From sequence record KX231829.1: a stretch of 41,760 nucleotides of DNA. One strand, 5' to 3'. A model generated the notes under the pieces. It had not been told where the DNA came from, did not search any database, and worked only from the letters and a program-made list of their open reading frames with translations. This DNA is from Enterobacter phage Tyrion. The translations under genes and the position numbers were made by a program. Within the stretch, counting starts at the first letter, position 1, and each line of letters opens with the position of its first letter. Below are positions 66 through 26,518 of the stretch, piece by piece.

Positions 66-82
66 ATTACCATAACGGTAAT
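66..82. promoter_or_regulatory. Operator palindrome ATTACC-ATAAC-GGTAAT upstream of terS
   Basis: Perfect TTACC-N5-GGTAA palindrome 20 bp upstream of the terS ATG. Confidence 0.6.
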
Positions 83-101
83 TATTACCCTGGTGGTTAC
101 A

Positions 102-695: not shown

Positions 696-2170
696 CGGAC
701 GCCGCTATGTCGCCGGAAGAGCAACTCGTCGAGGATATCGCATCATTCACGTATGACCCACTGGGCTATGCGCTGTATGCATTTCCTTGGGGCGAGGATG
801 GTACAGAACTGGCACACGCCACCGGACCACGCAAGTGGCAGGCTGATGCATTCCGCGAGATACGTGATCACCTCCAGAATCCTGCTACCCGTCACCAGCC
901 GCTGATGCTGGCCCGAGCATCCGGACACGGTATCGGTAAATCAGCGTTTATCTCGATGCTGATCAACTGGGGCATGTCCACCTGCGAGGACTGCAAGGTA
1001 GTGGTCACCGCGAACACCGACAATCAGTTGCGTACAAAAACATGGCCTGAAATCATCAAGTGGTCGAACCTTGCTATCACGAAAGAGTGGTTTACCTGCA
1101 CCGCCACAGCGATGTACAGCAACGATCCGGGACACGATAAACGCTGGCGCGCTGACGCTATTCCATGGTCTGAGCACAACACTGAAGCATTCGCCGGGCT
1201 GCACAACGAGCGCAAGCGCATCATCGTGGTATTCGACGAAGCCTCAAACATTGCCGATCTGGTGTGGGAGGTTGCCGAGGGTGCGCTGACGGACGAGGAC
1301 ACCGAAATCATCTGGGTGGCGTTCGGTAACCCGACGCGTAACACCGGGCGTTTCCGCGAGTGCTTCCGCAAATACCGGCATCGCTGGAAGTGCGCGCAGA
1401 TTGACAGCCGCACCGTTGAGGGCACCAACAAAGAGCAACTGCAAAAGTGGGTGGACGACTACGGCGAAGACAGCGACTTCGTGAAGGTGCGTGTACGCGG
1501 CATCTTCCCTGACGCGTCTGAAAACCAGTTTATTCCGTCAGGCCTGACACAGCCTGCTGTGGGTCGGGTGATTACTCCGGCACAGGTTCAGCATGCGGCT
1601 GTAGTGCTTGGCGTTGACCCTTCGCACCAGGGTAAAGACCCGGCGGTGATTTATCTTCGTCAGGGGCTGCACTGCAAGAAGCTGGGAGAGTACCCGCGCA
1701 CAACTGATGATGTCTGGTTTGCCAAGGTGATCGCCGACTTCGAAGATCAGTATCACGCTGACGCTGTGTTTATCGACTATGGATACGGGACTGGCCTGAA
1801 GTCAGTCGGTGATAACTGGGGGCGCTCATGGACGCTGATACTGTTCGGCGGCGGAACGGCAGATCCTGAGATGGGTAACAAGCGCGGGGAGATGTACAAA
1901 TCCGCCCGTGATGCGCTGAAGCTGGGCGCGCAACTTGACAGCCAGGATTTAGCCGACGAACTCAGCGCGCCTGAGTACAAAGTCAGGCTTAAGGACAGCC
2001 GGAAGATTTTGCAGGACAAGGACGAGGTGAAAGAATTGCTTGGACGGTCGCCGAACAACGCTGACGCCTATGTCCTGACCTACGCTTTCCCGGTGGTCAA
2101 GAAGCAGTACATACCAGGACAACAGAATCAGCAGGGTAAAGCCATCACAGACTACGATCCGTTTGCATAA
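692..2170 (+). CDS. terL: Terminase large subunit
   Basis: 492 aa, translationally coupled to terS. ATPase and nuclease terminase architecture (motifs GHGIGKS, VVFDEAS). Confidence 0.9.
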   Translation: MTDAAMSPEEQLVEDIASFTYDPLGYALYAFPWGEDGTELAHATGPRKWQADAFREIRDHLQNPATRHQPLMLARASGHGIGKSAFISMLINWGMSTCEDCKVVVTANTDNQLRTKTWPEIIKWSNLAITKEWFTCTATAMYSNDPGHDKRWRADAIPWSEHNTEAFAGLHNERKRIIVVFDEASNIADLVWEVAEGALTDEDTEIIWVAFGNPTRNTGRFRECFRKYRHRWKCAQIDSRTVEGTNKEQLQKWVDDYGEDSDFVKVRVRGIFPDASENQFIPSGLTQPAVGRVITPAQVQHAAVVLGVDPSHQGKDPAVIYLRQGLHCKKLGEYPRTTDDVWFAKVIADFEDQYHADAVFIDYGYGTGLKSVGDNWGRSWTLILFGGGTADPEMGNKRGEMYKSARDALKLGAQLDSQDLADELSAPEYKVRLKDSRKILQDKDEVKELLGRSPNNADAYVLTYAFPVVKKQYIPGQQNQQGKAITDYDPFA

Positions 2171-2207
2171 AAAAGGTCGCCTGAGCGACCTTCCACTTCA
2201 TTCTGCT

Positions 2208-2585
2208 TTAATCATCGGGGTAAATCAGTGGCATCCAGTGAGTTACCTTGGTAGCCCCTGAATCGATAAATGCTTGCGTCCTTTGCCAGTAGCCGCCCAT
2301 GAAAGCCAACTTGAATACATCTCCAGAATCACTAAGCGCTATAACGTCTTTCGACCACTGACCCTCTTTGCTTTCCGGAAGTCTTTCATCAACGCTTATC
2401 CAATCTATTCCGAAACCATCAGACATTTTATGTCTTGCTTCATGAATCACTTTGTCCATCCTCTTCATGGAGGCGGCAGGTAGCGGTATTTCTCGTACCG
2501 AACAGATTTCTTTGATCAGTCCACTCGCTATTACTAACTCTTCAAAAAGAGTGGCTATTAAATCGCGTTCCTCTTCACCATTCAT
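2208..2585 (-). CDS. DUF551-family protein (moron, opposite strand to late operon)
   Basis: 125 aa with C-terminal ...KVTHWMPLIYPDD typical of DUF551. A paralogous C-terminal domain is at 39918..40811. Confidence 0.65.
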   Translation of the reverse strand: MNGEEERDLIATLFEELVIASGLIKEICSVREIPLPAASMKRMDKVIHEARHKMSDGFGIDWISVDERLPESKEGQWSKDVIALSDSGDVFKLAFMGGYWQRTQAFIDSGATKVTHWMPLIYPDD

Positions 2586-2700
2586 CTACAACCTCGTCTT
2601 AGTTGCTCGTCAGGTTATCAGTGGCGGGCGGTGACGATGCCGCTTTTCGGGAGCTACCCTAGCCACTGATGAAGTTTAACACAGCCACCGGCGGGCAGGT

Positions 2701-2714
2701 TGTGACATGTCACG
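2701..2714. repeat. Palindrome tGTGACATGTCACg (copy 1)
   Basis: 12-bp perfect palindrome GTGACATGTCAC immediately after the stop of the minus-strand gene 2718..3089. Identical 14-mer to the window end/start junction. Confidence 0.8.
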
Positions 2715-2717
2715 GTA

Positions 2718-3089
2718 TTACTTGATGGCATCAAAGCCGGCGTTAATAGCTTCCGCGATATTGACCGCATTGGTTTTATCAAATTGCCCACTCTGAATAA
2801 GCGCCGCATGCAGGCATTGCAACTTCATGTTGTATAAGTGCTCACTGCGGTAATCGGCATCTGATTTTGAAAGTCCATTCTCGAGTGTTTCATGGATTCC
2901 GCCGCCCATGTCGTACCACTGCCAACACTTACCAAACTCACGATTCAGATCGCCATCATTCAGGCCATCAATCACTGACAGGTCAGATACCGCATCTTCA
3001 TGCTCAGGCTGATATCCTTCGCCGATAGCTTGTTTCAGGTATTCGATCATCTCGCCGCGTGGCTGATTAAGCTCTTCAATCTCTTTCAT
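2718..3089 (-). CDS. Acidic hypothetical protein (moron), possible DNA-mimic/anti-defence candidate
   Basis: ORF 2718..3185. Likely start is MKEIEEL at 3089 with RBS AAGGTGA. Strongly acidic (about 24 D/E versus about 10 K/R). No recognised domain. Confidence 0.5.
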   Translation of the reverse strand: MKEIEELNQPRGEMIEYLKQAIGEGYQPEHEDAVSDLSVIDGLNDGDLNREFGKCWQWYDMGGGIHETLENGLSKSDADYRSEHLYNMKLQCLHAALIQSGQFDKTNAVNIAEAINAGFDAIK

Positions 3090-3106
3090 GATTTTCACCT
3101 TAAAAA

Positions 3107-3135
3107 AATGCCCGGGGAACCGGGCGAAGTGGTAG
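3107..3135 (-). terminator. Rho-independent terminator (minus strand) directly abutting the RBS of the 2718..3089 gene
   Basis: Minus strand reads GCCCGGttccCCGGGC + AUUUUUUU, then AAGGUGAAAAUC-AUG. Confidence 0.5.
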
Positions 3136-3202
3136 CAATGGGAGTTGCCTTCCATGGCAGTCACGGGTTTACAGCACAACGTCATCGCAATGGCGCTCTG
3201 GT

Positions 3203-3245
3203 GTAAAAAGGGCGGTACCAGTTATTTCAAGGGATGGCCCTGGTA
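3203..3245 (-). terminator. Second minus-strand hairpin/terminator
   Basis: 10-bp stem GCGGTACCAG/CTGGTACCGC, followed on the minus strand by CUUUUUAC. Confidence 0.4.
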
Positions 3246-3966
3246 CCGCCAATGTTACAACTATCGTTACTGGCACTACGGTTATCACGGTCCTAAGGCG
3301 TTATTGGGTTTTCTGACTCTGTCAGATAATTTATTGCCACACTAACGCAGTGGCCTCGGGGCTTTAACGTCTTCCGAGTAGCGACATCACACGCCGTTTT
3401 TATTTCCTCTTTTAGCCCAGCTAATACTTTGCTCATTGCCGAGGATCACACGACTCTGGATTTGGTTGTGGTGGCCGGTGCTGTGATATTCCGGCATAAG
3501 GCGCTTATTCGGCGGCATCGAGCTTGCTTATTCGCTTGAGCCATCCTTGTGAGTCAGCCACGTCCCACTGCGCATCAGCCTGCGCATTCACCACAACGCT
3601 GAGAGCACTCCCATCTTTGCCAATGGGTTTCAAGAGCGGCAGGCCTACCACTTGGAATGCTCTCATCGTTGCACCCTCGTCTCTTCCGAGGTGTCACACC
3701 GTATCGCCAGGATGGTGAATCCCTTGTCCGTGCATACCGTTCACTGACTTGCACATTCCGGCTACCCGCTCGGGGATAAGGAACACCAAGAAACCCCGCC
3801 GGACCGCTGCGACACATGTGCCATATGCCGTACTTCTCACACCTGAAAGCGCGCTCCACCGTCTGGATTTAACGACCCGGCTCAAAGGTCATTCACTGAA
3901 GCGCGCTTTAAGTTGTGTTCCGGTTACGTCTCCGGAGCGGTGCCATCTCCGCCGTCTGCATTATTT

Positions 3967-4046
3967 CATTACCTCAAGGGTAATTATTGATGCAATAACT
4001 GTCAATACCCTACGCTAAATAATGCATATGTGGTTAAATTGGTAAT
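3967..4046. promoter_or_regulatory. Promoter-operator unit upstream of the 68-aa gene and portal
   Basis: Perfect palindrome ATTACC-TCAAG-GGTAAT (3967..3983), then CATATGTGGTT (4025..4035) and half-site GGTAAT (4041..4046). Same composite architecture as 7 other intergenic sites. Confidence 0.55.
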
Positions 4047-4073
4047 AATTTAATTGCGTACGGAGTCATTGTT

Positions 4074-4280
4074 ATGTGCATGGGTAGCTCTCCATCAGTG
4101 CCAGCGGCACCGGAAGTGCAGGCCGCACCGCAGGAACAGGATGCTGCTGTAGTCGATGCTCGCGACGAAGAAACCCGCCGCCGCCGCGCTGCTGCCGGTC
4201 GTAGTTCCACGCTTCTGACTGGCTCGCAGGGGGACACCTCCGCAGCCAATACCAGCGGCAAAACTCTGCTCGGTCAGTAA
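4074..4280 (+). CDS. Small low-complexity Ala/Arg-rich protein upstream of portal
   Basis: 68 aa. Its translation-initiation region ACGGAGTCATTGT(T/C)ATG is duplicated exactly at the portal start. Confidence 0.5.
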   Translation: MCMGSSPSVPAAPEVQAAPQEQDAAVVDARDEETRRRRAAAGRSSTLLTGSQGDTSAANTSGKTLLGQ

Positions 4281-4294
4281 ACGGAGTCATTGTC

Positions 4295-5965
4295 ATGGCG
4301 GAAACAACGAAAGAGCGGTTGAACAAACAGTTCGCACAGCTTGAAAGCGAGCGCCAGTCGTTCGAGCCACACTGGCGAGAGTTGAGTGATTACATCAATC
4401 CTCGTGGTTCCCGCTTCCTGACATCAGAGGCAAACCGTAACGACCGCCGAAACACGCGGATCATCGACTCAACCGGCACTATGGCGGCGCGTACTCTTGC
4501 CAGTGGCATGATGTCAGGCATCACCAGCCCTGCGCGTCCGTGGTTCCGCCTGGCGACACCTGATCCGGATATGATGGATTATGGCCCGGTCAAGTTGTGG
4601 CTGGAGACGGTACAGAACCGCATGAACGATATGTTCAACAAGTCGAATCTGTACCAGTCACTGCCTCAGCTTTACGGCAGTCTTGGCACATACAGCACCG
4701 GCGCAATGGCGGTACTGGATGACGAAGAAGACATTATCCGCACGATGCCTTTTCCGATCGGCAGTTACTACCTGGCTAACTCCCCGCGCGGAAGCGTTGA
4801 TACCTGTTTCCGTAAGTTCTCCATGACTGTGCGCCAGCTTGTGCAGGAATTTGGCCTGGACAACGTCAGCGAATCCGTGAAGGGCATGTGGGAAAGCGGC
4901 ACGTATGAGAAGTGGGTTGAAGTGATGCACTCGGTGTATCCGAACATCAACCGCGATACGGCGAAGCTGGACAGCAAGAACAAGCCGTATAAATCCGTTT
5001 ATTACGAGGTCGGCGGCGATAACGATAAGTTGCTGCGCGAATCCGGCTTCGATGAATTCCCGATCATGGCGCCACGCTGGGAAGTGAACGGTGAAGATGT
5101 CTATGGCTCATCGTGTCCTGGCATGCTGGCGCTTGGTCCGGTTAAAGCGCTGCAACTTCTCCAGAAACGCAAATCTCAGCTGATTGATAAAGCCACTAAT
5201 CCGCCGATGGTTGGGCCTACTTCTCTCAAGAATCAGCGCGTTTCACTCCTCCCTGGTGATATCACCTACATCGACCAGGTGACCGGTCAGGACGGTTTTA
5301 AACCCGCATACCTGGTAACTCCCAGCACTGGCGATTTAATAACCGACATTCAGGACACGCGCCAGACCATCAACAGCGCCTACTTCGTCGATCTGTTCAT
5401 GATGCTTCAGAACATCAATACCCGCTCAATGCCGGTGGAAGCGGTGATCGAGATGAAGGAAGAAAAGCTCCTGATGCTGGGGCCGGTACTGGAACGCCTG
5501 AACGACGAATGCCTGAACCCACTGATTGACCGTGCATTCTCGATGATGGTGCGTAAGAACATGCTGCCACCGCCGCCGGACGTGATGGAAGGTATGCCTC
5601 TGAAAGTGGAATACATCTCCGTCATGGCTCAGGCGCAGAAGTCTATCGGTCTGTCCAGTCTGGCATCAACTGTCAACTTCATCGGACAACTTGCGCAGGC
5701 CAAACCTGAAGCACTCGACAAGCTCAACGTTGACCAGGCGATCGACGCATTTGCTGATATGTCCGGCGTATCGCCGACTGTCATAGTGCCGCAGGACCAG
5801 GTTGAACAGACGCGTCAGGACCGTGCGCAGCAGCAACAGCAACAGCAGGCAATGGCAATGGCTCAGATGGCAGCGCAGGGAGCCAAGACTCTCAGTGAGA
5901 CGCAGATGAAAGATCCCAGCGCGCTCTCAGCAATGGCTCAGGCAGCAGGCAGGCAACAGCAATGA
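4295..5965 (+). CDS. Portal protein
   Basis: 556 aa, positioned after terL. Gln-rich C-terminus. Size matches epsilon15 gp4. Confidence 0.85.
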   Translation: MAETTKERLNKQFAQLESERQSFEPHWRELSDYINPRGSRFLTSEANRNDRRNTRIIDSTGTMAARTLASGMMSGITSPARPWFRLATPDPDMMDYGPVKLWLETVQNRMNDMFNKSNLYQSLPQLYGSLGTYSTGAMAVLDDEEDIIRTMPFPIGSYYLANSPRGSVDTCFRKFSMTVRQLVQEFGLDNVSESVKGMWESGTYEKWVEVMHSVYPNINRDTAKLDSKNKPYKSVYYEVGGDNDKLLRESGFDEFPIMAPRWEVNGEDVYGSSCPGMLALGPVKALQLLQKRKSQLIDKATNPPMVGPTSLKNQRVSLLPGDITYIDQVTGQDGFKPAYLVTPSTGDLITDIQDTRQTINSAYFVDLFMMLQNINTRSMPVEAVIEMKEEKLLMLGPVLERLNDECLNPLIDRAFSMMVRKNMLPPPPDVMEGMPLKVEYISVMAQAQKSIGLSSLASTVNFIGQLAQAKPEALDKLNVDQAIDAFADMSGVSPTVIVPQDQVEQTRQDRAQQQQQQQAMAMAQMAAQGAKTLSETQMKDPSALSAMAQAAGRQQQ

Positions 5966-17576: not shown

Positions 17577-20051
17577 ATGAGACAGGAATGTATTCAGGCC
17601 GTGCAACAGGCCGCACAGCGCACTCTTACAGCCCGAGAAATACAGAATATCGAAGACCGCATTTACCGCAATATGCGATCTATCGCCCGTGACGATCCGA
17701 TGTCATGGCGTCAACTTAACGACGCTGAACGCCTGCGCCGCGCCGGGCAACTGGCGGCTGAAGAGTTGCAGCGAGAAGCGGCACTGAAAAAACGCCGTGT
17801 CGCGCTTACCATCGCAGCGCGTCAGCGCCTTGACAACTTCATTAACAGTTATCAGGGTGCTGACGGAAAGCTAGGCGCACTCAACCGCACGATCGCCTTC
17901 AGCGCCGACGGTAAATCAAACTTTCTGTCTGTTGAGTCTCGAACGAAAGCGACGCGTGATTACGCATTAAGCCAGTTGCAGGAAGCATTTGAAGCCGTTG
18001 ACCCTCGTTTCTTTGGCCTGTTTGAAGATGAAGCCGGCGTGCGCGATCTGGTGTTTGAGATGCGCGGGCAGAATACTGGCAATGCGAAGGCCAGAAAAGG
18101 GGCGAAAGCCTGGGGGGAGGTTACTGAACTGCTGCGCCGCCGCTTCAATGATGCCGGTGGCGATATCGGCTACCTGGAAAACTGGGGTATACCTCAGCAC
18201 CACTCGATGGAAAAGGTTGGTGCTGTATCGAAAGATAAATGGGTAAGCGATGTGATCGGCAAACTCGATCGCAAATATTACATCCGCGCCGACGGCCAGT
18301 TGATGAATGATACTGAGTTGTCATCTTTTCTCGGTGAAGCCTATAACACGATTGCCACAGGCGGCCTTAATAAACTCACTGATACCGGTATGCGTATTTC
18401 CGGTGCGCGGGCAAACCGTGGCAACGCGTCACGCCAGATCCACTTTAAAGACGCTGATTCATACCTTCAGTACCAGCAGATGTATGGCGACAGGTCACTC
18501 TGGGAAATCATGGTAGGGCACCTGGAAGGTATCAGCAAAGACATTGCGCTGGTGGAGACATACGGGCCAAACCCGGATCACGTGTTCCGATCTCTGCTTG
18601 ACCAGACGAAATCAGAGACAGCCACGGCTAACCCGCAGAACACAGGCAAAATAGAACGGCAGGCGAACAGCACAGAGAACCTGTACAACTTCATTTCTGG
18701 AAAGACGCAACCTGTAGCGAATCCGCACATCGCTCGCTGGTCTGACAATATCCGCAACTGGATGGTTGCCAGCCGTCTCGGTTCCGCGCTTCTGTCATCA
18801 TTCTCTGATCTCGGAACCATGTACCTGTCTGCGAAGGTTACCAACCTGCCAATGAACCAGTTATTTCGCAACCAGTTAGAGGCAATGAACCCCGCTAACC
18901 GCACGGAACTGGCGCGGGCACGCCGGGCTGGTCTGGCAATGGAATCACTACTTGGCAGCGTTAACCGCTGGGCGATGGATAATATGGGGCCATCTGTATC
19001 CCGCTGGGCGGCAACCGCTGTAATGCGCGCCAGCGGCCTGACGGCATGGTCAGATGCTCACAAGCGCGCCTATGGTGTCACCATGATGGGTAGCCTGGGG
19101 GAAGTTGTCACCATAACGCCTGACCTGAAAAGCCTGTCTAATGACGATTTTCGTATACTGAAAAGTAAGGGGATCACCGATACCGACTGGAGTGTGTGGA
19201 AGCTGGCGCAACAGGAGGACTGGGGGAAAGGAAACGATACGATGCTGACGCCGGAAAGCATCATGCGCATTCCTGATGCTGCTGTAGAGCATCTCGGATC
19301 GCCGGAGCGCGTGAAGTTCGAAGCGATGCGTAAGCTACTCGGAGCGGTTACCGAAGAAGTTGACATGGCTGTGATAACTCCGGGTGCGCGTGAGCAGATG
19401 GTTACTGGTTCAGGCATCCAGCGCGGGACATGGAAGGGAGAACTAACCCGTAGCGTATTCCTGTTTAAGTCTTTCCCGATCTCAGTTGTCATGCGTCACT
19501 GGTCGCGTGCAATGGGAATGCCGTCTGCCGGTGGGCGTGCGGCATACATCGCGACGTTTATCGCCAGTACAACCATTCTTGGCGCGCTGTCGCAGCAGTT
19601 AAACGATATGGCATCAGGCAGGAACCCGCGTGATATGACCGGTGATGATGCCGCAAAATTCTGGCTTGGTGCATTACTGAAAGGTGGTGGTCTTGGCCTG
19701 TATGGCGATTTCCTTCTGTCTGATCACACTAGGTACGGAAGTGGTGCGCTGGCGTCGATGCTTGGCCCGGTGGCTGGTCTTGTTGATGATGTCGTTAAGA
19801 TTGCCCAGGGTATCCCGCTTAATGCTGTAGAAGGAAAATACGAACAAACTGGCGGTGATCTGGTGAAACTTGGCAAAGGACTGACGCCTGGCGCGAATAT
19901 CTGGTATCTCAAAGCCGCCATAGATCACATGATCTTCAACCAGATGCAGGAGTATTTTTCTCCTGGCTATCTGCGTAAGATGGAACAACGTTCGAAGAAA
20001 GAATTTAACCAGACATACTGGTGGCGGCCGCAGGACACGCTACCGCAATAG
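17577..20051 (+). CDS. Internal core/ejection protein (large)
   Basis: 824 aa, the last gene of the injection-protein block. Confidence 0.65.
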   Translation: MRQECIQAVQQAAQRTLTAREIQNIEDRIYRNMRSIARDDPMSWRQLNDAERLRRAGQLAAEELQREAALKKRRVALTIAARQRLDNFINSYQGADGKLGALNRTIAFSADGKSNFLSVESRTKATRDYALSQLQEAFEAVDPRFFGLFEDEAGVRDLVFEMRGQNTGNAKARKGAKAWGEVTELLRRRFNDAGGDIGYLENWGIPQHHSMEKVGAVSKDKWVSDVIGKLDRKYYIRADGQLMNDTELSSFLGEAYNTIATGGLNKLTDTGMRISGARANRGNASRQIHFKDADSYLQYQQMYGDRSLWEIMVGHLEGISKDIALVETYGPNPDHVFRSLLDQTKSETATANPQNTGKIERQANSTENLYNFISGKTQPVANPHIARWSDNIRNWMVASRLGSALLSSFSDLGTMYLSAKVTNLPMNQLFRNQLEAMNPANRTELARARRAGLAMESLLGSVNRWAMDNMGPSVSRWAATAVMRASGLTAWSDAHKRAYGVTMMGSLGEVVTITPDLKSLSNDDFRILKSKGITDTDWSVWKLAQQEDWGKGNDTMLTPESIMRIPDAAVEHLGSPERVKFEAMRKLLGAVTEEVDMAVITPGAREQMVTGSGIQRGTWKGELTRSVFLFKSFPISVVMRHWSRAMGMPSAGGRAAYIATFIASTTILGALSQQLNDMASGRNPRDMTGDDAAKFWLGALLKGGGLGLYGDFLLSDHTRYGSGALASMLGPVAGLVDDVVKIAQGIPLNAVEGKYEQTGGDLVKLGKGLTPGANIWYLKAAIDHMIFNQMQEYFSPGYLRKMEQRSKKEFNQTYWWRPQDTLPQ

Positions 20052-20063
20052 AAGGGAGTTGGT

Positions 20064-20375
20064 ATGGGTTATATTGAAGCGAAGTTGAGTTTACTTGGAA
20101 GAATGCGAGTTATTGCTCTGCTGCTGAATGCAATAGTATTTCTGGGTAGTTCATGGGCTTTGTATAAAACCGGAATTTTTACAACGTCATGGTATAACGA
20201 AGGTGATGCAGTATTATGCGTACTTCTAATGCTATGTACAGCATTAAGCATCTTTGCCATCAATAACCCGATTATTCTTGATAAAACAGATGATGAATCG
20301 TCTTCGCTACTATTTTTATGGTTGAAGAGAAAAAAGCTCGAGCATCTTGAGAAAATAAAAGAACTTAAAAAATAG
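20064..20375 (+). CDS. Small two-TM membrane protein (AT-rich moron), candidate superinfection-exclusion protein
   Basis: 103 aa with two hydrophobic helices and low-GC codon usage. Sits between injection proteins and ant, where P22 has sieA. Confidence 0.55.
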   Translation: MGYIEAKLSLLGRMRVIALLLNAIVFLGSSWALYKTGIFTTSWYNEGDAVLCVLLMLCTALSIFAINNPIILDKTDDESSSLLFLWLKRKKLEHLEKIKELKK

Positions 20376-20376
20376 C

Positions 20377-20388
20377 GTGACATGTCAC
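20377..20388. repeat. Palindrome GTGACATGTCAC (copy 2)
   Basis: Perfect 12-bp palindrome between convergent genes, directly followed by the terminator hairpin ggccgctttcgcggcc. Confidence 0.8.
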
Positions 20389-20396
20389 AAAGGCCG

Positions 20397-20420
20397 CTTT
20401 CGCGGCCTTATTCTTATCAG
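20397..20420. terminator. Bidirectional Rho-independent terminator
   Basis: GGCCGC-tttc-GCGGCC followed by ttattctt on the plus strand. U-rich on the minus strand after the adjacent palindrome. Confidence 0.55.
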
Positions 20421-21130
20421 AACCCACCAGCCTGGCTGTTGATGTACTGCGCGTGCGTCTGGATGTCGCGCAGGCATTTACTGGCACCTACGATGTAGCT
20501 GATCATCGTGGTGAACTCCGCCGCCGCGCCGGATACGTCGTGGCCGTCGTCCTGCATCTGGTTCAGCAGGTTCATCAGCAGTGAGCGATCCGCCAGCCCA
20601 ACAACACCTTCCGGCGAGTGAATCATGTCGCGGTAGCCGGGTTTGAGTGGGGCGCTGTAGTTCTTCTGTTCAATCTGCATGGCCTGCATAACTGCTGATG
20701 CTGTGGCATTGGCAACCTGATCAGCAACCATCTTAATGCGGTCTTCTTGCGGGAGCGTATTTTTGATGTAACTACCGGTGCGGCGGATCTGCGGCAGCAC
20801 TTCGCCAGTTACCCATTTACGGAAACGGTAGGGAATAGTCCCAGGTGTTACTGCATCGCGGCAGCGCAGGATCAGAGTATAGAGGCCGGATTCGTTTATG
20901 ACATTAACGGTCTGACTACCTTTTACGGTGTAAGTTGAACTTACACCCTTCTCATCATCATCTAATGCTTTCAACGACATGCGGGAGTTAGTCAACCCAA
21001 GAGCTTTGCAAACGTCTGATGCAGCAAACCATGGATTACCATCAATGTTGAACATGCGAACAGGTGTGGATGATTCGAACTTAAATACTGCGTCTGGAGA
21101 TGGTTTTCTTTGAGTTGTCATAGTGATCAC
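20417..21130 (-). CDS. ant: Bro-N domain antirepressor-like protein (Ant)
   Basis: 237 aa. N-terminal Bro-N signature FNIDGNPWFAASDVCKALGL...LDDDEK. The C-terminal approximately 70 aa is paralogous to the product of 21439..21699. Confidence 0.75.
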   Translation of the reverse strand: MITMTTQRKPSPDAVFKFESSTPVRMFNIDGNPWFAASDVCKALGLTNSRMSLKALDDDEKGVSSTYTVKGSQTVNVINESGLYTLILRCRDAVTPGTIPYRFRKWVTGEVLPQIRRTGSYIKNTLPQEDRIKMVADQVANATASAVMQAMQIEQKNYSAPLKPGYRDMIHSPEGVVGLADRSLLMNLLNQMQDDGHDVSGAAAEFTTMISYIVGASKCLRDIQTHAQYINSQAGGF

Positions 21131-21392
21131 CTTTGTAGTTCCGGTTAATCACCACCGCTGAGACCAATCAGATGGTGGTGAACTGTGCAGAGTTGGTCTT
21201 ACCGGCTACAAAGGACCCGGCGCACCGTGAGGTGCCCCCACACAGCCCACCATAGAATATGGGTGCTATGCTTCACGCATAAAAAAACCGCTCGCGCGGT
21301 AATGCGCCTCTGTAGTAATCCGGGAGACCAATCCCGGCACTGGATTTTGCCAGTGCCTGATCACTATGGCACAAGAATTATGCATTGTAAAT

Positions 21393-21448
21393 TTACCTGT
21401 GAGGTAATAATAAACGGCTTCACAGGTAATTACAAACCTTATGTGGTT
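21393..21448. promoter_or_regulatory. Operator/promoter unit upstream of ant
   Basis: TTACC-TGTGA-GGTAAT (21393..21408), half-site AGGTAAT (21424..21430), ACCTTATGTGGTT (21436..21448). Confidence 0.5.
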
Positions 21449-21699
21449 TGCCGTCGTAGTTGCTCTACGCAATAATCCAGGTGCGTCTGCAGATCCTTCA
21501 TCGATAACTGTGAACTGGTGACATAGTTCACCAGCGCAGTCAGTTCTGCCAGCGGTCCATCAACGTTAAATCCGTCTTTGTCCAACTGGCGCAGCAATTT
21601 CATAAGGTGTGAGTCCTCCACCAGGGATATGACGCCTCCCGGCGTGTGTACTCTTTCAGCAAATCCATCTTCCAGCGGGTGGTGATACTGCCGTTGCAT
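21439..21699 (-). CDS. Small antirepressor-like protein (stand-alone Ant C-terminal domain paralog), SOS-box associated
   Basis: ORF 21439..21717 (TTG). Likely ATG at 21699 with RBS GGAG. Clear similarity to the Ant C-terminus (HTPGGVISLVEDSHLMKLL.. versus HSPEGVVGLADRSLLMNLL..). Confidence 0.6.
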   Translation of the reverse strand: MQRQYHHPLEDGFAERVHTPGGVISLVEDSHLMKLLRQLDKDGFNVDGPLAELTALVNYVTSSQLSMKDLQTHLDYCVEQLRRQTT

Positions 21700-21719
21700 C
21701 TCTTCATCTCCATGCAATC

Positions 21720-21739
21720 ACTGTATGCTTATACAGTAG
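21720..21739. promoter_or_regulatory. LexA (SOS) box aCTGTATGCTTATACAGta
   Basis: CTGT-N8-ACAG with AT-rich spacer, 18/20 match to TACTGTATATATATACAGTA. Lies about 20 bp upstream of the ATG of the small antirepressor-like gene. Confidence 0.65.
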
Positions 21740-21774
21740 CAAAGACTTTCTCCACTATCCAGCACAGAATGCAA

Positions 21775-21841
21775 ATTACCTTATCGGTAATAAATGTGTT
21801 GAATGTTATTTATTCGATACATATACGGTTATTCAGGTAAT
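21775..21841. promoter_or_regulatory. Operator/promoter unit between small ant-like gene and tailspike
   Basis: Perfect ATTACC-TTATC-GGTAAT (21775..21791), then GGTAATAAATGTGTT, ACATATACGGTT (21819..21830) and AGGTAAT (21835..21841). Confidence 0.55.
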
Positions 21842-21896
21842 AGAATGGATGGGACTGCATGCGCGATGGGCGCACAAGCTATCCGGAGATAATGAC

Positions 21897-24455
21897 ATGA
21901 CGGTCTCAACCGAAGTTGACCACAACGATTACACCGGGAACGGCGTCACAACGACATTCCCGTATACCTTCAGAATTTTTCAGAAGTCTGATCTGGTTGT
22001 TCAGGTTGTAGACCTGGATGAAAATATAAGCGTTCTGGTCCTTGATACGGACTACACAGTTACCGGTGCTGGTGGATACACTGGCGGCAATGTGATATTG
22101 GCTACGGCGCTTGCCAGTGGATACCAGATCTCCATTTCGCGCGAGTTACCTGTTACTCAGGAAACAGACCTTCGCAATCAGGGTAAGTTCTTCGCTGAAG
22201 TTCATGAAGACGCTTTCGATAAGCTGACTATGCTGATCCAGCAAGTAAGAAGTATGTTCAGCCTGGCGCTGCGCAAGCCTACATTCGTGGCAAATTATTA
22301 TGATGCTATGAACAACTATATTCGAAATCTGAGAGATCCTGTACGTCAGCAAGATGCAGCAACAAAAGGGTATGTTGACAGTTTGTCAGGAACAAATTTA
22401 AACAGAACCCTACGTGTTCCTGAAGCAGTAATATCTGTTTTGCCTGACATTGAAGATAGAAGAAATAAAGCGTTAAGTTTCGACTACGCCGGTGAGCCAT
22501 TGCTATTAGATCCATCAGGAAGTGGATTGTGGGGTTATGTTCTGATTGATTCATTTCAGTTAGGGGCAACAATATCCACTCGATACCAGGCATTGCGCTG
22601 GACTCTTCCGGATGGCGATGGTGAATACTATCGCTGGGATGGTGCACTTCCTAAAATCGTGCCACCTGGTTCCACTCCTGATACCGCAGGTGGCGTAGGC
22701 CCTGGTAAATGGGTTGGTGTTGGTGATGCGTCTTTACGCGGACAATTAAACAACACATTCGATGATGTCACATCATTAAGAAATTCAGAAAACCTTATCC
22801 CAGATATTCCAGTCTTGCTCGTTAATTACTATTCAGGTGTAGTTGGTGGAGGTGGGGCATTCTATGTTGATGACGCAGATACCACGTCAACAGATAACTC
22901 CGGCACTGTATTCGTAAACGCTAGCGGACAACGTATCAAGCGAGTTCTTGATGGCGTATGCCGCTGGTCAGACTTCGGAATTCTGCCAGGCATGCCGGTA
23001 GCGCCAACTAAATCGCAGTGTGAAGCAGTATGGGCGTGGGGTTTCGCAAACGGCTGTACCCGGTACGAAACCTTCCAGAAAGGGGAAATGACATTCACTT
23101 TCCCTCTGCTGTTCCAGGTGCCTGCTGACTGGACTGGCGGGGCGGTGAGCTTTATTGCTGAGGGTCTGCACAAATTCGCATACGATTTCCGTAATGGCGC
23201 CACTGATGATGTGGTAGAGATCATCCTGAAACTTGAAGACCTGTCAGGGAACACACCCATCCATACTATTTATAATTTCGATAACGTTGGGATGGGGCGG
23301 TTCCCTGGTAAGAGCATCCGATACACCGCTCTACGCCACACGAACGCAAAAAACTCAATGATCAAGGTTACCGGGAAGAACAACTACGGATATGCCCTGT
23401 TCATAGGCGGTAGTGATAACAGCATCGTGTACAATTCAACGTTTTATAACTGCGATGGACAATTGCTTGTAACGTCACCGGGAGGAGCTTACGACAACTT
23501 CGGTGATGCGATTTATGTTGGCGCTAAAAATGTGTCTATCCAGAGTCCTGTCATTGAAACAACACAGGGTGGTAGAGCTGGTATCGTATTCGAAGGGACA
23601 AGTGTTGATCGTGTTGGTGGTGAGGTAACAAACTGCTTCATTAAGGGATATGATCGCGGTATTCACATTGAAACCATTGGCTACAGAATGGACGCAGTTA
23701 ATATTACTGGAGGCAGGATACAGGATTGTAATACAAGCATATTGGCATTTAATGGAGTAGCCGCCGATATGGGAAGTGATATGTCTGTTATTGTCAAGGG
23801 ATTAACATCGCGGCTTGATAGCACAATTTCAGGTCATGCTAATCCAACAGGATTTACTCTTGGACACTTTATGGCTTCAGGAATAAACATGCAGATCACC
23901 ACTGAGGGTTGCTCATGGCAGGCGCAACTTAACAATATAACTATTGTTGGTGGTGGAAAATGGATTAGTAGCGGAGACAGGATGTTTGTTAATTCAGGAG
24001 GAATAGCAGCGCCATACGCAAGAAGTATAGAGATAAATAATATGTATGCCCCCGCAAACAGAAACACATTGTCATCATCAGGTAATGTTATATTCACAAA
24101 CTCATTTTGGGGTGGCGATATAGCGGTAACTGGCGGAAATAAGAGCGTGATAGATAATATAGAGATGACAAGACTCACATTCCCAAATTGCGGGAGAATT
24201 AGTCTTGTTGGATCCAATAGCGCCATTGTGAGAAACATAATATTCCAGTTCCCTGATACGTGGGCAATTGACAACACCCAAACTTTGCAGGTGCCTGTAT
24301 GTCCTATTATTGAAAATATCCATGTAAATAGCACGCCAACAGGAACGGCAACACTGCAGAGGAATGCAGAGAACACAGGTGCATCAGCAAACAGATACAG
24401 AAGGGCCATGCCATCATATATTTCAAATGGCACGACATTTACAACAATACCCTAA
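21897..24455 (+). CDS. Tailspike: T7 gp17-like N-terminal adaptor domain plus parallel beta-helix depolymerase-like domain
   Basis: ORF 21849..24455. Likely start MTVSTEV at 21897 with RBS GGAGATAA. N-term YTGNGVTTTFPYTFRIF..DLVVQVVDLD matches the T7 tail-fibre N-terminal domain pattern. The C-terminal two-thirds is AT-rich with beta-helix-like repeats. Confidence 0.85.
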   Translation: MTVSTEVDHNDYTGNGVTTTFPYTFRIFQKSDLVVQVVDLDENISVLVLDTDYTVTGAGGYTGGNVILATALASGYQISISRELPVTQETDLRNQGKFFAEVHEDAFDKLTMLIQQVRSMFSLALRKPTFVANYYDAMNNYIRNLRDPVRQQDAATKGYVDSLSGTNLNRTLRVPEAVISVLPDIEDRRNKALSFDYAGEPLLLDPSGSGLWGYVLIDSFQLGATISTRYQALRWTLPDGDGEYYRWDGALPKIVPPGSTPDTAGGVGPGKWVGVGDASLRGQLNNTFDDVTSLRNSENLIPDIPVLLVNYYSGVVGGGGAFYVDDADTTSTDNSGTVFVNASGQRIKRVLDGVCRWSDFGILPGMPVAPTKSQCEAVWAWGFANGCTRYETFQKGEMTFTFPLLFQVPADWTGGAVSFIAEGLHKFAYDFRNGATDDVVEIILKLEDLSGNTPIHTIYNFDNVGMGRFPGKSIRYTALRHTNAKNSMIKVTGKNNYGYALFIGGSDNSIVYNSTFYNCDGQLLVTSPGGAYDNFGDAIYVGAKNVSIQSPVIETTQGGRAGIVFEGTSVDRVGGEVTNCFIKGYDRGIHIETIGYRMDAVNITGGRIQDCNTSILAFNGVAADMGSDMSVIVKGLTSRLDSTISGHANPTGFTLGHFMASGINMQITTEGCSWQAQLNNITIVGGGKWISSGDRMFVNSGGIAAPYARSIEINNMYAPANRNTLSSSGNVIFTNSFWGGDIAVTGGNKSVIDNIEMTRLTFPNCGRISLVGSNSAIVRNIIFQFPDTWAIDNTQTLQVPVCPIIENIHVNSTPTGTATLQRNAENTGASANRYRRAMPSYISNGTTFTTIP

Positions 24456-24493
24456 CGTAAAGATTATTGAGGTGGCCCTATAAGGCCACCTTT

Positions 24494-26368
24494 TTACTTA
24501 CTCATAATTTCAGATATTTTATTAAATATATATTTACCAACAATCTCAGACCCATATTTTGTGAGGTGAATTTTGTCAGAATAAATTGGCTCACCATCAG
24601 GGCTTTGCACAATGCAACTTTTTGCGTCACATAAAGCGTCATTAGGGTTAATGAAATATACACCTTTAGTTTTGCTTGCCCATTCTTCTAATATTCTATT
24701 TTCAATTATTTCATTTTTTTCTTCCCTTGCAGGGCATTCAAGCTTTAAAATCGTATTTATAGGAAGCGGATTTTTAGCAAGACATTCAAAAACCTGATAT
24801 TCAGTGCCTTGTGTCTTTCCAATTACAAATAGCTTTCTACCTTTGGTTGATCTAAAGGCATCCGAATTAACAATGTTGGTTAATTCATTTATGACAATAT
24901 TTGCATTATTGTCAACAACTTCTTCACCAGTTGCAATATTTTTAAACTTCCAGTCACTACTCCATATTTGAGCGTAGAGCACGTATTTTGATTTATATTT
25001 TATGAGCGATTTATTGAAGTGCCCAGACCTATCTATACATGCCTTGGCAATTTTGTCTGAAAAAAATCTAACGTAATTATTTGTTGATATACACCCATCC
25101 TGGAATACTGCTGCAAAAGGCTTTCCATATTCTTTCAAAAAAGTAGAATACTGTCTTGCAAAACTATCACCAGTTATAATGAACTCAGGCTCGTTATTGT
25201 TTATGTTAAATAGCTGAATGCCGTTTCCTTGAGGTGTTCCAGAGCCTCCATAGTACTTTGCATGAAACTCTTTTGCTGACAGTCCGAATTTTTCATCGAC
25301 CCTGGATTTAATCCCGTCTTCACTGACATAATAAGATGCATAAAGAGCAATGAAAAACATACAGCAAAGTCCAATGCCGTAACTTCTTCTCTTTTCAACT
25401 GTATAGTAGAGTATTATTGAAATTGCCAAAACAATATACAAATAAGTTAAAAAACCAACATCAATATTAAATTTACCTAATGTGACAATGACAGGCCAGT
25501 GTACAAGGTAAATCGAGTAAGACCATAGACCAGCTTTTTGAAGAATAATATTTGAAAGTATTGAGTTTTTATTATTTGCAAGAATAACAAAGTATGCGCC
25601 AACCACAGGTAGCAATGCAGCATAACCAGGCCACGGAGTTTTATCGCTGATTAGAGCAATGGATGCAACAATGAGCGCGATACCAGCGATTTCAATCTTA
25701 CCGGAATGCTCTTTGTGCCGAGTGAGAGGGTACAGGAACGCGAGGCCACCAACCATCATCTCCCACGCCCTAGTATAAAGCATAAAGTACGCTGCTGACG
25801 GGTCTGTGTATGAAACATAAACAGAAAGCAACAAAGAAACTATCGCTGCGATTACAACGGCTATCTTTATTTTTGATAAAGGCAATATTTTTGATAAAGC
25901 ATAAATAATGATAGGGTAAATAATATAAAACTGCCACTCTACAGATAACGACCACGTGTGCAGTAAAAATTTACTTCTTGAATCTGCATCAAAATAACCA
26001 GACTCAAAAAAATAAGTAAAATTAGAAATGAATAATAAACTACTAAATGAATGATTACCTATGACCTGATAGGTCAATGGCTCAAAAATTAAATATCCAA
26101 CTATAAGAAGCGCAACCACAACAGCAACTAGCGCAGGAACTATTCTTTTGCATCTTGCAATCAGGAATTTAACAATTGAAAAGTTGTTATTTTCTACACC
26201 TCTGAATATTATTGATGTCATCAAAAAACCTGAGATAACGAAAAAAACATCAACTCCAGCAAAACCACCCGGTAAAAAAGATGGGCTAAAATGGAATACC
26301 ATAACGGATAAGACCGCAATTGCACGAAGACCATTAATATCTTTTCTGAATTTATTATCAACGCCCAT
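24494..26368 (-). CDS. oac: O-antigen acetyltransferase (acyltransferase-3 membrane domain plus SGNH domain, OafA/Oac-like), lysogenic conversion
   Basis: 624 aa. N-term NGLRAIAVLSVMVFHF with about 10 TM helices. C-terminal SGNH-like domain. Very low GC. Same position as the O-acetyltransferase of phiV10. Confidence 0.85.
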   Translation of the reverse strand: MGVDNKFRKDINGLRAIAVLSVMVFHFSPSFLPGGFAGVDVFFVISGFLMTSIIFRGVENNNFSIVKFLIARCKRIVPALVAVVVALLIVGYLIFEPLTYQVIGNHSFSSLLFISNFTYFFESGYFDADSRSKFLLHTWSLSVEWQFYIIYPIIIYALSKILPLSKIKIAVVIAAIVSLLLSVYVSYTDPSAAYFMLYTRAWEMMVGGLAFLYPLTRHKEHSGKIEIAGIALIVASIALISDKTPWPGYAALLPVVGAYFVILANNKNSILSNIILQKAGLWSYSIYLVHWPVIVTLGKFNIDVGFLTYLYIVLAISIILYYTVEKRRSYGIGLCCMFFIALYASYYVSEDGIKSRVDEKFGLSAKEFHAKYYGGSGTPQGNGIQLFNINNNEPEFIITGDSFARQYSTFLKEYGKPFAAVFQDGCISTNNYVRFFSDKIAKACIDRSGHFNKSLIKYKSKYVLYAQIWSSDWKFKNIATGEEVVDNNANIVINELTNIVNSDAFRSTKGRKLFVIGKTQGTEYQVFECLAKNPLPINTILKLECPAREEKNEIIENRILEEWASKTKGVYFINPNDALCDAKSCIVQSPDGEPIYSDKIHLTKYGSEIVGKYIFNKISEIMSK

Positions 26369-26407
26369 TTAATTACCCAAGGAATAATACTCTTTATCTA
26401 AATATTA

Positions 26408-26465
26408 TCACCTTATGGGTAATTTTGATAGGAGTAATCTCAGGTAATTATAACCATATATGGTT
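26408..26465. promoter_or_regulatory. Divergent promoter/operator region (oac leftward, lysis rightward)
   Basis: TCACC-TTATG-GGTAAT (26408..26423). Sigma70-like TTGATA (26425..26430) - 17 bp - TTATAA rightward. AGGTAAT (26442..26448), ACCATATATGGTT (26453..26465). On the minus strand CCATATATGGT is directly followed by a perfect TATAAT pointing toward oac. Confidence 0.55.
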
Positions 26466-26518
26466 TATTGTGTATGATGGACTCACCAACTAAGGGGGTT
26501 CGTTATGCACAGTAAACG

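Follow-up and report, generated by a model that had tools for sequence, protein, structure and literature searches.

A tRNA-like scaffold RNA with variable cargo in the gene-free spacer between terL and the portal gene of Enterobacter phage Tyrion: a putative minus-strand RNA operon

What occupies the long interval between terL and the portal gene of Enterobacter phage Tyrion, where no protein-coding gene is apparent? The sequence analyzed here is record KX231829.1, and the whole stretch of 41,760 nucleotides is called the window below. It represents an epsilon15-like (Uetakevirus) phage or prophage, and all epsilon15-like genomes carry a long non-coding stretch at this position. In Tyrion this stretch, hereafter the spacer, forms part of a minus-strand island between terL and a gp3-like gene, together with a DUF551 gene, an int-alpA motif and a gene for an acidic protein. 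On balance we lean towards the view that the spacer is a minus-strand non-coding RNA operon common to the epsilon15-like phages. The central part of the proposed operon is a structured RNA with a constant frame and a variable insert, which are referred to as the scaffold RNA (domain 2) and its cargo. The coordinates of all features are collected in Table 1.

An earlier examination of the letters alone (the sequence-only reading) had seen no credible coding gene at 3190-4073, and the searches bore this out. The spacer contains short open reading frames (ORFs) only, among them ORFs of 53 aa at 3505-3666 (minus strand), 94 aa at 3575-3859 (minus), 89 aa at 3749-4018 (plus) and 47 aa at 3293-3436 (minus), and the only PHROG match among them was a weak one for the ORF at 3145-3345 (plus). 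Two ORFs, those of 53 and 47 aa, overlap conserved DNA, and neither is kept as a reading frame in relatives; the 47-aa frame is disrupted in Erwinia phage Gungnir39. The remnants of a decayed protein gene, which the earlier reading had named as an observation that would refute it, did not turn up in the relatives, which show tRNA genes and RNA elements; this outcome speaks for that reading. The description of the spacer as GC-rich did not hold, as its GC content of 0.509 is close to the 0.506 of the window and lower than in terL (0.563) and the portal gene (0.546).

Thirteen diverse copies of domain 2 share a closing stem P1, (U)GUGGUG/CACCAC(A), a joining segment AAU, a hairpin P2, GCGCA-GGCUGA-UGCGC, a variable centre and a hairpin P3. 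In the family P3 reads GCCGG-AGAUCAGCA-CCGGC and abuts the 3' strand of P1. The two hairpin loops, L2 and L3, are complementary to each other in the family (GCUGA/UCAGC). The window scaffold departs from the family consensus only by an insertion in L3. Pairs 3-9 of P1 (7 bp) are the conserved core, formed in at least 27 of 30 sequences. A covariance model, R1, was built from 30 diverse members and comprised P1, P2, P3 and the conserved loops. Its sole match in the window was at 3465-3597 on the minus strand, with 76.1 bits and an E value of 2.9e-17, and since the window sequence is one of the 30 training sequences, this match is partly by construction.

The pairing of domain 2 is maintained by compensatory change. 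Variants of P1 that were picked without a constraint on P1 include GGUCUG/CAGACC, AGGGUG/CACCCU, UGGAUG/CAUCCA and UGAGGG/CCCUCA. P2 is found as GCGAA/UUCGC, GCGUA/UACGU, UCGGA/UCCGA and GACGG/CCGUC, P3 as GCAGG/CCUGC and GCUGG/CCAGC, and in Pseudomonas phages the L2-L3 pairing is GUCGA/UCGAC. P1, P2, P3, the loop-loop helix and also P0, the closing stem of the neighboring domain 1, all show G.U wobbles and compensatory changes. Since a pairing filter was used, the percentage of paired positions is inflated, and the number of pairs changed on both sides is the informative measure. Both-sides changes were observed at 13 of 21 pairs when the cargo was deleted (A1) and at 12 of 24 pairs in the full-length sequences (A3). 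Neither value was reached in any of 500 shuffles, and the slid controls collapsed in both tests. By its pattern of substitution, therefore, domain 2 is to be read as a conserved structured RNA and not as a protein.

That the conserved DNA instead encodes a small protein, namely the 53-aa ORF (3666-3505, minus strand), seems to us scarcely credible. A Shine-Dalgarno (SD)-like sequence, GAGGG, does lie 7 nt upstream of this ORF, and a 60-aa ORF in Bas80 shares its C-terminal 31 residues with one difference. The frame is broken or shifted in other copies, however: the mEp460-type copy stops after 13 codons, locus L012 has a frame shift, IME11 is without a start codon and a TGA interrupts the frame in the Pseudomonas copy. 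In addition, conservation runs 40-50 nt beyond the stop codon, and the ORF had no PHROG match.

The scaffold RNA is not confined to epsilon15-like phages. Window positions 3455-3609 are 91-94% identical to unannotated DNA in N4-like IME11, Bas77-80, Klebsiella BUCT610 and Pseudomonas CF23a, and a 40-nt core (3570-3609) is about 89-100% identical in HK620, mEp460, Stx2 phages, Vi1-like Magnus, phiEt88 and others. After filtering, 241 instances from viral contigs and species genomes gave about 70 cargo classes, 6-178 nt in length, on one scaffold of about 50 nt. The members include N4-like, T1-like, P22-like, lambdoid, Vi1-like, Erwinia and Pseudomonas phages, and R1 detects further ones in genomes of Kosakonia, Massilia, Rhizobium and Eoetvoesiella. 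Among 5426 complete E. coli genomes, 1775 match the mEp460-type copy (586 of them at a coverage of at least 80%), and plasmids of about 93-112 kb, perhaps phage-plasmids, match it as well. A loose genome-wide pattern, AATGCGCAGNNNGATGCGC, gave mostly chance matches in GC-rich genomes, and 7 of the 95 loci searched had R1 scores of at least 42 bits. For the mEp460-type copy, none of 60 sampled rows carried an annotation over the scaffold; a few 'hypothetical protein' calls cover the terminator end only.

The cargo is variable between classes. Copies of cargo type A in Pseudomonas and enteric phages are about 92% identical despite the exchange of three of the six P1 pairs, and a hairpin in this cargo shows a compensatory change from G-C to A-U. 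Because of this cross-host identity despite the exchange in P1, and because of the compensatory change of its own, the cargo is considered to be under selection. An antisense target of the Tyrion cargo within the window was not apparent, as the best complementarity was 11 nt and shuffled cargo mostly gave 10-11 nt and up to 13 nt.

Hypervariable centres between invariant ends, together with 'empty' versions whose centres are only 6 or 12 nt long, raise the alternative that the element acts at the DNA level, as a recombination or insertion hot-spot or as a cassette resembling a miniature inverted-repeat transposable element. The cargo would then be inserted DNA and the conserved parts protein-binding sites. 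Identical cargo in unrelated phages points to horizontal exchange as a unit, which fits such an element, and covarying inverted ends would also be expected of transposase-binding sites. Nevertheless, we regard this alternative as quite unlikely. The G.U wobbles in P1, P2, P3 and L2-L3, which are A.C on the opposite strand, fit an RNA; the two hairpins are unlike each other and the inverted repeats extend over 7-9 bp only; the orientation is always co-directional with neighboring tRNAs and transcription units; and no recombinase is consistently close by.

Several observations connect the scaffold RNA with tRNAs. In E. coli prophage L002, a bona fide tRNA-Arg(UCU) is found in exactly the slot of the scaffold, after the same domain 1 and leader and before the same trailer and first terminator (T1). 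In prophage PP10 of enteropathogenic E. coli (EPEC) E2348/69, the slot holds a 113-nt 'pseudogenic tRNA-Gly', a label given by the Prokaryotic Genome Annotation Pipeline (PGAP), which corresponds to E2348C_ncR36. This RNA has the same acceptor stem, GUUGUGG/CCACAAC, a CCA end and an enlarged middle part, and its D and T arms are canonical. The scaffold RNA of lytic phages lies directly upstream of tRNA genes on the same strand, and of 25 tRNAs at the family loci, 18 are within 500 nt and on the same strand. Of 70 cargo classes, 26 have a CCA no more than 5 nt after P1, compared with 1 of 70 controls, and so does the window (A-CCA, 3466-3463). The 7-bp core of P1 runs without a linker into the 5-bp P3, which is the 7+5 geometry of the tRNA acceptor/T minihelix, and the cargo of 6-178 nt takes the place of the anticodon arm. 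Thus the scaffold RNA and tRNA genes are interchangeable in position, while ARAGORN, the Rfam tRNA model and R1 all separate the tRNAs from the scaffold RNAs. The scaffold RNA is not itself a tRNA; our best guess is a stable RNA that mimics a tRNA and presents a cargo domain.

A simpler account of the same slot would be a decayed tRNA gene, a non-functional relic of the tRNA of the sister prophages. The position in a tRNA slot, the failure of tRNA finders to detect the scaffold and the PGAP call of the EPEC counterpart as pseudogenic all agree with it. It is very unlikely, since a relic would not keep an identical scaffold of about 50 nt with compensatory substitutions across enteric, Pseudomonas and beta- and alpha-proteobacterial phages, nor would it keep a cargo at 92% identity across hosts.

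Immediately upstream of the scaffold lies domain 1, in which the 7-bp stem P0 closes two hairpins. The predicted fold has an energy of -28.8 kcal/mol and a z score of -3.0. In 70-80 of 109 distinct upstream contexts, the 7-mer of the leader has a partner at the right offset, and the covarying pairs of P0 include AAGAGCA/UGCUCUU, GAGGGCA/UGCUCUC, AAGCGCA/UGCGCUU and GGUUGCA/UGCAACU. The stem encloses a variable stretch of 42-101 nt. Because of this covariation, the boxA-like 'leader box' is mainly the 3' strand of P0.

The leader box bears on the main rival explanation, which is favored by the position of the element: a cis-acting processive antitermination RNA of the HK022 put or nut type, which would modify RNA polymerase so that it reads through T1 and the second terminator, T2, into the downstream genes. 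Nus factors might bind in it to the boxA-like leader UGCUCUUU, and this box agrees with the rrn boxA consensus, UGCUCUUUAACAA, over the first 8 nt of the consensus. In mEp460 and Stx2a_WGPS2 the element follows PL, at the position of lambda N, with a T1-type terminator about 15 nt further on. The HK620 copy lies between pR'/qut and the late terminator, the phiEt88 copy follows an antiterminator gene, and the window scaffold is upstream of both T1 and T2. A terminator-like site was found at most 300 nt downstream in 40 of 70 cargo classes, compared with 11 of 58 controls, although a nearby terminator is equally expected of a free-standing small-RNA gene. Other findings argue against antitermination. 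The leader box covaries as the 3' strand of P0 and is thus base-paired and not a free boxA. In lytic N4-like and T1-like phages, tRNA genes and not terminators come after the element, and real tRNAs substitute for it in the same slot. Furthermore, put consists of a V of two long stem-loops, with neither a closing stem nor a variable insert (PMC9378689). Positions 18000-30000 of HK022 gave no BLAST or R1 match, and putL and putR were not located in that interval, outside of which putR may lie. We therefore consider antitermination doubtful as the function of the element, including the proposed role of Nus factors at the leader box.

The sequence-only reading had suggested a leftward promoter in an operator unit at 3969, and a conserved minus-strand promoter-like site does overlap the operator. 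Its -10 element lies inside the repressor operator, and the arrangement TTGACA-17-TACCYT over the operator is kept in epsilon15, two E. coli prophages and one viral contig. A consensus scanner missed this site because its -10 element matches at only three of six positions. The operator motif, ATTACC-N5-GGTAAT with at most two mismatches, occurs 16 times in the window, compared with 1.2 expected, and the copy in the spacer aligns to the 'repressor' protein_bind feature at 2931-2947 in the epsilon15 record. That record annotates in its own stretch a minus-strand terminator, an RNase III site, an integration host factor (IHF) site and a repressor operator. In the alignment they correspond to 3090-3216, 3792-3918 and 3968-4071 of the window, and epsilon15 is without window 3217-3791. 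Further operator motifs are paired or clustered at window positions 66-100, 26372-26962, 34194-34995 and 37264-37342, these places including one just upstream of terS. The distribution of the motif suggests that one repressor may control many promoters, as the epsilon15 annotation has it.

Between the predicted promoter and domain 1 lie two further conserved parts. The minus strand of the structured 5' part (3935-3770) folds with -65.9 kcal/mol (z about -3.1, precisely -3.09), and none of 200 shuffles was as stable, whereas the plus strand gives -46 kcal/mol and a z score of about -0.2 (-0.19). This 5' part is 90.6% identical to epsilon15 2683-2810, which is annotated as an RNase III processing site. 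The upstream block that follows is not present in epsilon15 itself; it is common to mEp460 (window 3570-3766, 73.6% identity), prophage L002 (3656-3876, 73.4%) and EPEC PP10. In the lambdoid phages mEp460 (L003, 1830-1340, minus strand) and Stx2a_WGPS2 (L133), an RNA of about 490 nt lies just left of the repressor gene and consists of upstream block, domain 1, scaffold and a T1-type terminator; lambda has PL-nutL-N there. An ORF of the size of N is absent from the mEp460 and Stx2a_WGPS2 site, where the records annotate hypothetical ORFs on the opposite strand.

A module resembling the tag region of transfer-messenger RNA (tmRNA) was observed about 170-300 nt upstream of the scaffold in other phages, and not in the window. 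The modules of IME11, Bas80 and Magnus give sub-threshold matches to the permuted and alpha tmRNA models, including a match of 33.1 bits to RF04321 (tmRNA_permuted), below its gathering score of 47, and HK620 has a similar tag-like sequence. The IME11 module reads ...UAG AAA CGA ... AUA AAU GCA AAC GAU GAU GUU GUU CUG AUG GCG GCG UAA, which gives ANDDVVLMAA and a stop, and the HK620 module would give ANEEMYLAVA and a stop; the ssrA tag of E. coli is ANDENYALAA. The modules have no start codon and an in-frame stop just upstream, and ARAGORN finds no tmRNA at these loci. The upstream block of the window contains AUGUGCAAGUC at about 3747-3736 (minus strand), and comparable sequences are present in mEp460 and in EPEC (L134). 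Read from GCA, these are GCA AGU CAG UGA in the window, GCA AGU CAA UGA in mEp460 and GCA AGC CAG UGU UAG in EPEC. The stretch that starts with GCA may be degenerate kin of the tag-like module, or its likeness may be a coincidence. The scaffold RNA itself was also considered as a tmRNA and rejected, as neither ARAGORN nor Rfam gave a tmRNA match in the window and the acceptor pair 3:70 is U-A, not G3:U70.

On the 3' side, the trailer consists of an inserted module of about 150 nt (about 3464-3311), followed by a common trailer box, AAUAACGCCUUAGGACCGUGAU (about 3310-3289). Within the insertion, a stretch of 69 nt (3403-3335) has 95.7% identity to a sequence of Erwinia phage Gungnir39 that lies just downstream of tRNA-Met there, and it is without a conserved ORF. 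Window positions 3310-3257 match the trailer directly after a scaffold RNA or a tRNA in many loci.

The trailer ends at T1, the first of two terminators that the sequence-only reading had proposed on the minus strand. Both are real by the usual features of intrinsic terminators, a GC-rich hairpin, a U-tract and a stem kept by compensatory change, and only the earlier coordinates were a few bases off. T1 has an 11-bp stem (3250-3240/3221-3211) and a U5 tract (3209-3205), with a free energy of -21.8 kcal/mol and a z score of -4.31. Its stem covaries, being GGCGGUGAUAGU/ACUAUUACCGCC in L002 and GGCGGUGGCAG/CUGACCACCGUC in the EPEC locus L134. T2 has a 6-bp GC stem (3125-3120/3115-3110) and a U7 tract (3108-3102), with -12.6 kcal/mol and a z score of -3.2, and compensatory changes in relatives give GCCCGG/CCGGGC or GCCCAC/GUGGGC.

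The tandem terminators are taken as the ends of two successive RNAs, and the stretch between them as the gene of a small RNA (sRNA). This sRNA folds with -33.7 (z = -2.95) and is kept in 13 distinct relatives. Window positions 3201-3102 are 86.2% identical to the full length of E2348C_2757.EST5UTR of EPEC (NC_011601, 2837269-2837365, plus strand), which has the same flanking terminators; the plus strand of the EPEC record corresponds to the minus strand of the window. Overall, prophage PP10 is about 84% identical over the aligned 59% of the spacer. The EPEC tables list E2348C_ncR36 as an annotated non-coding RNA at 2837057-2837169 (Pearl Mizrahi et al. 2021, PMC8550237, supplementary tables). 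In the same study, RIL-seq, a ligation and sequencing method for RNA interactions, found an Hfq-bound RNA at 2837204-2837266 (NC_011601, plus strand), with 25 chimeras to lpp and 12 to bfpP, and described E2348C_2757.EST5UTR as a 'newly identified EPEC-unique sRNA' that is Hfq-associated and has chimeras to the 5' untranslated region (UTR) of cfa and to perC (PMC8550237). In our comparison, EPEC 2837204-2837266 maps to the T1 hairpin region and EST5UTR maps between the U-tracts of T1 and T2. By analogy with this homologue, the T1-proximal trailer and the T1-T2 sRNA of Tyrion are probably separate Hfq-bound regulatory RNAs. The leftward non-coding RNA that the sequence-only reading had suggested thus finds support in the minus-strand promoter-like site, the fold stability of the minus strand and the RIL-seq results for the EPEC homologue.

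Two observations were made around the start of the sRNA. The T1 loop region (3239-3200, minus strand) holds a conserved CCCUUGAA, and with a spacing of 17 nt TTGAAA (in relatives TTGAAG or TTGATG) precedes TTTACA/TACACC, the latter directly ahead of the 5' end mapped for the EPEC sRNA. Judging from these motifs, the sRNA may have a weak promoter of its own embedded in the terminator. The Pas sRNAs of EPEC looked promising as counterparts because they are prophage sRNAs near structural genes, and they were rejected, as PasB maps to 1466261-1466343 in PP6, another locus.

The gene downstream of T2 encodes the acidic protein. The sequence-only reading had rightly given its length as 123 aa and described it as acidic and without a domain; its net charge is -13. 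The gap between the U-tract and the start codon is 12 nt (AAGGUGAAAAUC, 3101-3090) and not the 18 nt counted before, with the U-tract ending at 3102 and the ATG at 3089. The protein had been proposed as a DNA mimic or anti-defence factor, and the searches lend this no support: no Pfam match, functional annotation or known mimic family was found, and the sole match was to phrog_4846, whose function is unassigned. Only the C-terminal 50 aa recur, in two other phage records. The arrangement of T2, SD and ATG (GGGCAUUUUUUUAAGGUGA) is kept in 13 relatives. Since the SD abuts T2, the acidic gene would be expressed from read-through or from an unrecognized promoter, and control by read-through, as proposed in the sequence-only reading, would fit the kept geometry.

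This geometry, with two terminators in series before the acidic gene, also suits the idea that the whole region is only a leader or attenuator for that gene, its conserved parts setting the passage of polymerase through T1 and T2. The sequence-only reading had offered such a simple role, which does not account for what the spacer holds, namely a distinct and widespread structured RNA and a separate sRNA. The scaffold and domain 1 are found in dozens of phages whose genes or tRNAs downstream of them are unrelated; epsilon15 keeps T1, the sRNA and T2 and yet is without 3217-3791; the downstream gene is poorly conserved; and host mRNAs are trans targets of the T1 and T1-T2 RNAs in EPEC. A mere leader is thus unlikely.

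The reading that we tend to prefer, with reservations, is a minus-strand RNA operon with an excised, tRNA-mimicking scaffold RNA and a variable cargo. In this model, leftward transcription would start at the promoter whose -10 element is inside the operator. The transcript would pass through the 5' hairpin region and the two tandem stem-closed domains and end at T1, or it would read past T1 through the sRNA of about 100 nt to T2. The acidic gene would be transcribed only by polymerase that passes both terminators. In the scaffold, the second hairpin would stand in the position of the D arm and the paired hairpin loops would resemble the tRNA elbow. The scaffold would thereby mimic a tRNA, so that tRNA-processing enzymes could cut it out and the RNA would stay stable, presumably with RNase P acting at the 5' side, trimming at the 3' side and possibly CCA maintenance. 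The cargo may carry a phage-specific function, for example the binding or sequestering of a host or defence factor. A broader proposal, which we put forward only tentatively and consider less probable, is that the scaffold is a horizontally exchanged RNA display platform, an invariant tRNA-mimicking frame recognized by the universal tRNA machinery of the host, on which phages swap cargos that serve as decoys, aptamers or guides, in some cases with an upstream tmRNA-tag-like module.

A number of results weigh against the tRNA-mimic operon. Neither ARAGORN (tRNA or tmRNA, in the window) nor the Rfam tRNA model RF00005 (in 2100-4400, even at E values up to 5) gave a match. The T loop of the scaffold is non-canonical (L3 AGAUCAGCA vs UUCRANY). 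CCA is absent in 63% of the cargo classes, and the frequent extension of P1 to 9 bp would leave part of 'NCCA' paired in the precursor. The L3 of the window itself, AAUAUCACAGCA, has an insertion of about 3 nt that leaves four of the five loop pairs and weakens the loop-loop helix, and the covariation of this helix comes from one lineage. Most of the A1 and A3 sequences were chosen by the pairing filter, and the whole element is predicted to be no more stable than its shuffles (z = 0.26). Moreover, the transcript evidence comes from the EPEC homologue and not from the locus of Tyrion. Should the operator repress the promoter in lysogens, induced cells or a different promoter may be the source of the EPEC signals.

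Table 1. Features of the terL-portal region. Positions refer to the window, except for the tag-like modules, which are numbered in the loci of the phages named.
Feature	Position	Strand	Details and basis
terS	54-695	plus	
terL	692-2170	plus	
DUF551 gene	2585-2208	minus	DUF551 match, E 4.4e-10
int-alpA RNA motif (RF02996)	2605-2669	minus	44 bits; gathering score 35.8
SD and acidic gene (123 aa)	2718-3101	minus	SD AAGGUGA 3101-3095, abutting T2; ATG 3089; stop 2718
Candidate sRNA (about 100 nt)	3102-3201	minus	Between the T1 and T2 U-tracts; ends in T2
Terminator T1	3205-3250	minus	GGCGGUACCAG, 18-nt loop, CUGGUACCGCC, C, U5
3' trailer	3251-3464	minus	Between scaffold RNA and T1
RNA domain 2 (tRNA-like scaffold RNA)	3465-3597	minus	Covariance model and covariation
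P1	3595-3589/3473-3467	minus	UGUGGUG/CACCACA; extendable to 9 bp, 3597-3589/3473-3465
J1/2	3588-3586	minus	AAU
P2	3585-3581/3574-3570	minus	GCGCA/UGCGC; loop L2 GGCUGA 3580-3575
Cargo	3569-3496	minus	74 nt
P3	3495-3491/3478-3474	minus	GCCGG/CCGGC; loop L3 3490-3479
A, then CCA	3466, then 3465-3463	minus	After the 7-bp P1
RNA domain 1	3601-3664	minus	7-bp P0 GAGAGCA 3664-3658/UGCUCUC 3607-3601 around two hairpins
Conserved upstream block	3666-3769	minus	GGUAGCCGGAAUGUGCAAGUC ... GGUGCAACGAU
Structured 5' part	3770-3935	minus	Long imperfect hairpin about 3917-3838; second hairpin about 3830-3810
Repressor operator	3968-3984	palindrome	ATTACCTCAAGGGTAAT; motif count and epsilon15 alignment
Predicted sigma-70-like promoter	3977-4005	minus	-35 TTGACA 4005-4000; 17-nt spacer; -10 TACCCT 3982-3977
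Small gp3-like gene	4074-4280	plus	After the minus-strand island
Portal gene	4295-5965	plus	
Tag-like module, IME11 (L004)	1950-1802	minus	
Tag-like module, HK620 (L008)	about 2770-2700	minus	
Tag-like module, Bas80 (L005)	1911-1788	minus	
Tag-like module, Magnus (L129)	1885-1736	minus	

Elsewhere in the minus-strand island, the int-alpA motif stands between the acidic and DUF551 genes, a context unlike the 5' UTRs of int and alpA that gave the family its name.

Searches of Rfam 15 at gathering and permissive thresholds, with the window, 12 related loci and short-cargo copies, gave no match to the scaffold and returned only tRNAs, int-alpA, C4 and isrK. Full-text literature searches, an exact one for the core sequence among them, also turned up no account of the scaffold, and the subscription literature or the 10,006 unnamed candidates of a 2023 survey of phage RNAs (PMC10690425) may hold it. 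The presence of an unannotated structured RNA in about one third of complete E. coli genomes and in at least seven unrelated phage lineages represents an annotation gap, and several records call spurious ORFs over the scaffold. If the display proposal is true, the cargos could act against tRNA-targeting or other RNA-sensing defences, and the family would be a new class of modular phage RNA, conceptually akin to engineered tRNA scaffolds. As a compact natural frame that accepts inserts of 6-178 nt, the scaffold could also serve for expressing RNAs. In EPEC, lpp, cfa, perC and bfpP are the partners with which the T1 and T1-T2 RNAs pair by way of Hfq, and because of these targets the prophage locus may feed into the regulation of the host envelope and virulence.

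How does this RNA compare with known systems? At the 3' end, the trailer and the T1-T2 RNA resemble 3'ETS-leuZ and other terminator-derived Hfq sRNAs in being 3' pieces of a tRNA-like unit with intrinsic terminator ends. The likeness to the EST5UTR-type sRNAs of EPEC covers window 3250-3102 only and not the scaffold RNA. The put RNAs of HK022 are likewise structured nascent RNAs just downstream of phage promoters and face terminators; they differ from the scaffold in architecture and share no sequence or model similarity with it in the HK022 interval searched. Weinberg et al. are said to have described GOLLD and ROOL as large structured RNAs of phages and prophages, of unassigned function and often beside tRNA genes. 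The scaffold RNA is much smaller than these, has another architecture and gave no Rfam match.

The C4 antisense RNA of P1 and the CI antisense RNA of P4 (RF01695) are also small regulatory phage RNAs cut from a leader transcript. RNase P cuts them owing to an acceptor-like stem that their ends make, and the target is set by the loops. A C4 identity was rejected for the scaffold locus, which had no Rfam C4 match and whose cargo has no above-chance target in the window, and the scaffold cargos differ from C4 in ranging over 6-178 nt. Elsewhere in the window, a C4 RNA (21171-21257, minus strand, 73.3 bits) and an isrK RNA (21281-21356, minus strand, 79.9 bits) lie side by side, with operator copies near the pair at 21392 and 21775. 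By analogy, this pair resembles the RNA immunity modules of P1 and P4, here in a phage of the epsilon15 type.

The tRNAs of epsilon15-like prophages, the tRNA-Arg(UCU) and the tRNA-Gly-like E2348C_ncR36, share with the window RNA the slot, the 5' leader box, the 3' trailer and the strand, whereas the window RNA has no anticodon arm or canonical T loop. It is long known that the tRNA clusters of phages include 'extra' stable RNAs without an assigned role, such as rnaC (species 1, 139 nt) and rnaD (species 2, 119 nt) of T4. Like the scaffold RNA, these are stable phage RNAs of unassigned function that are longer than tRNAs, and in the T4 record they directly follow tRNA-Arg within a tRNA cluster and share its strand. 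They are processed together with the tRNAs. As read from the sequence, a tRNA-type T arm is present in rnaC, and CCA forms the end of rnaD. Homology was rejected, since R1 does not match them, and the canonical T arm of rnaC differs from the non-canonical loop-loop helix of the scaffold family. We know of no invariant scaffold with a variable cargo in rnaC or rnaD. With its fixed frame and about 70 natural cargo variants, the scaffold family makes the question of the extra stable RNAs testable. The tRNA-like stable RNAs of phages are thus the known kind nearest to the scaffold family, and there is a real chance that the family represents a new modular class.

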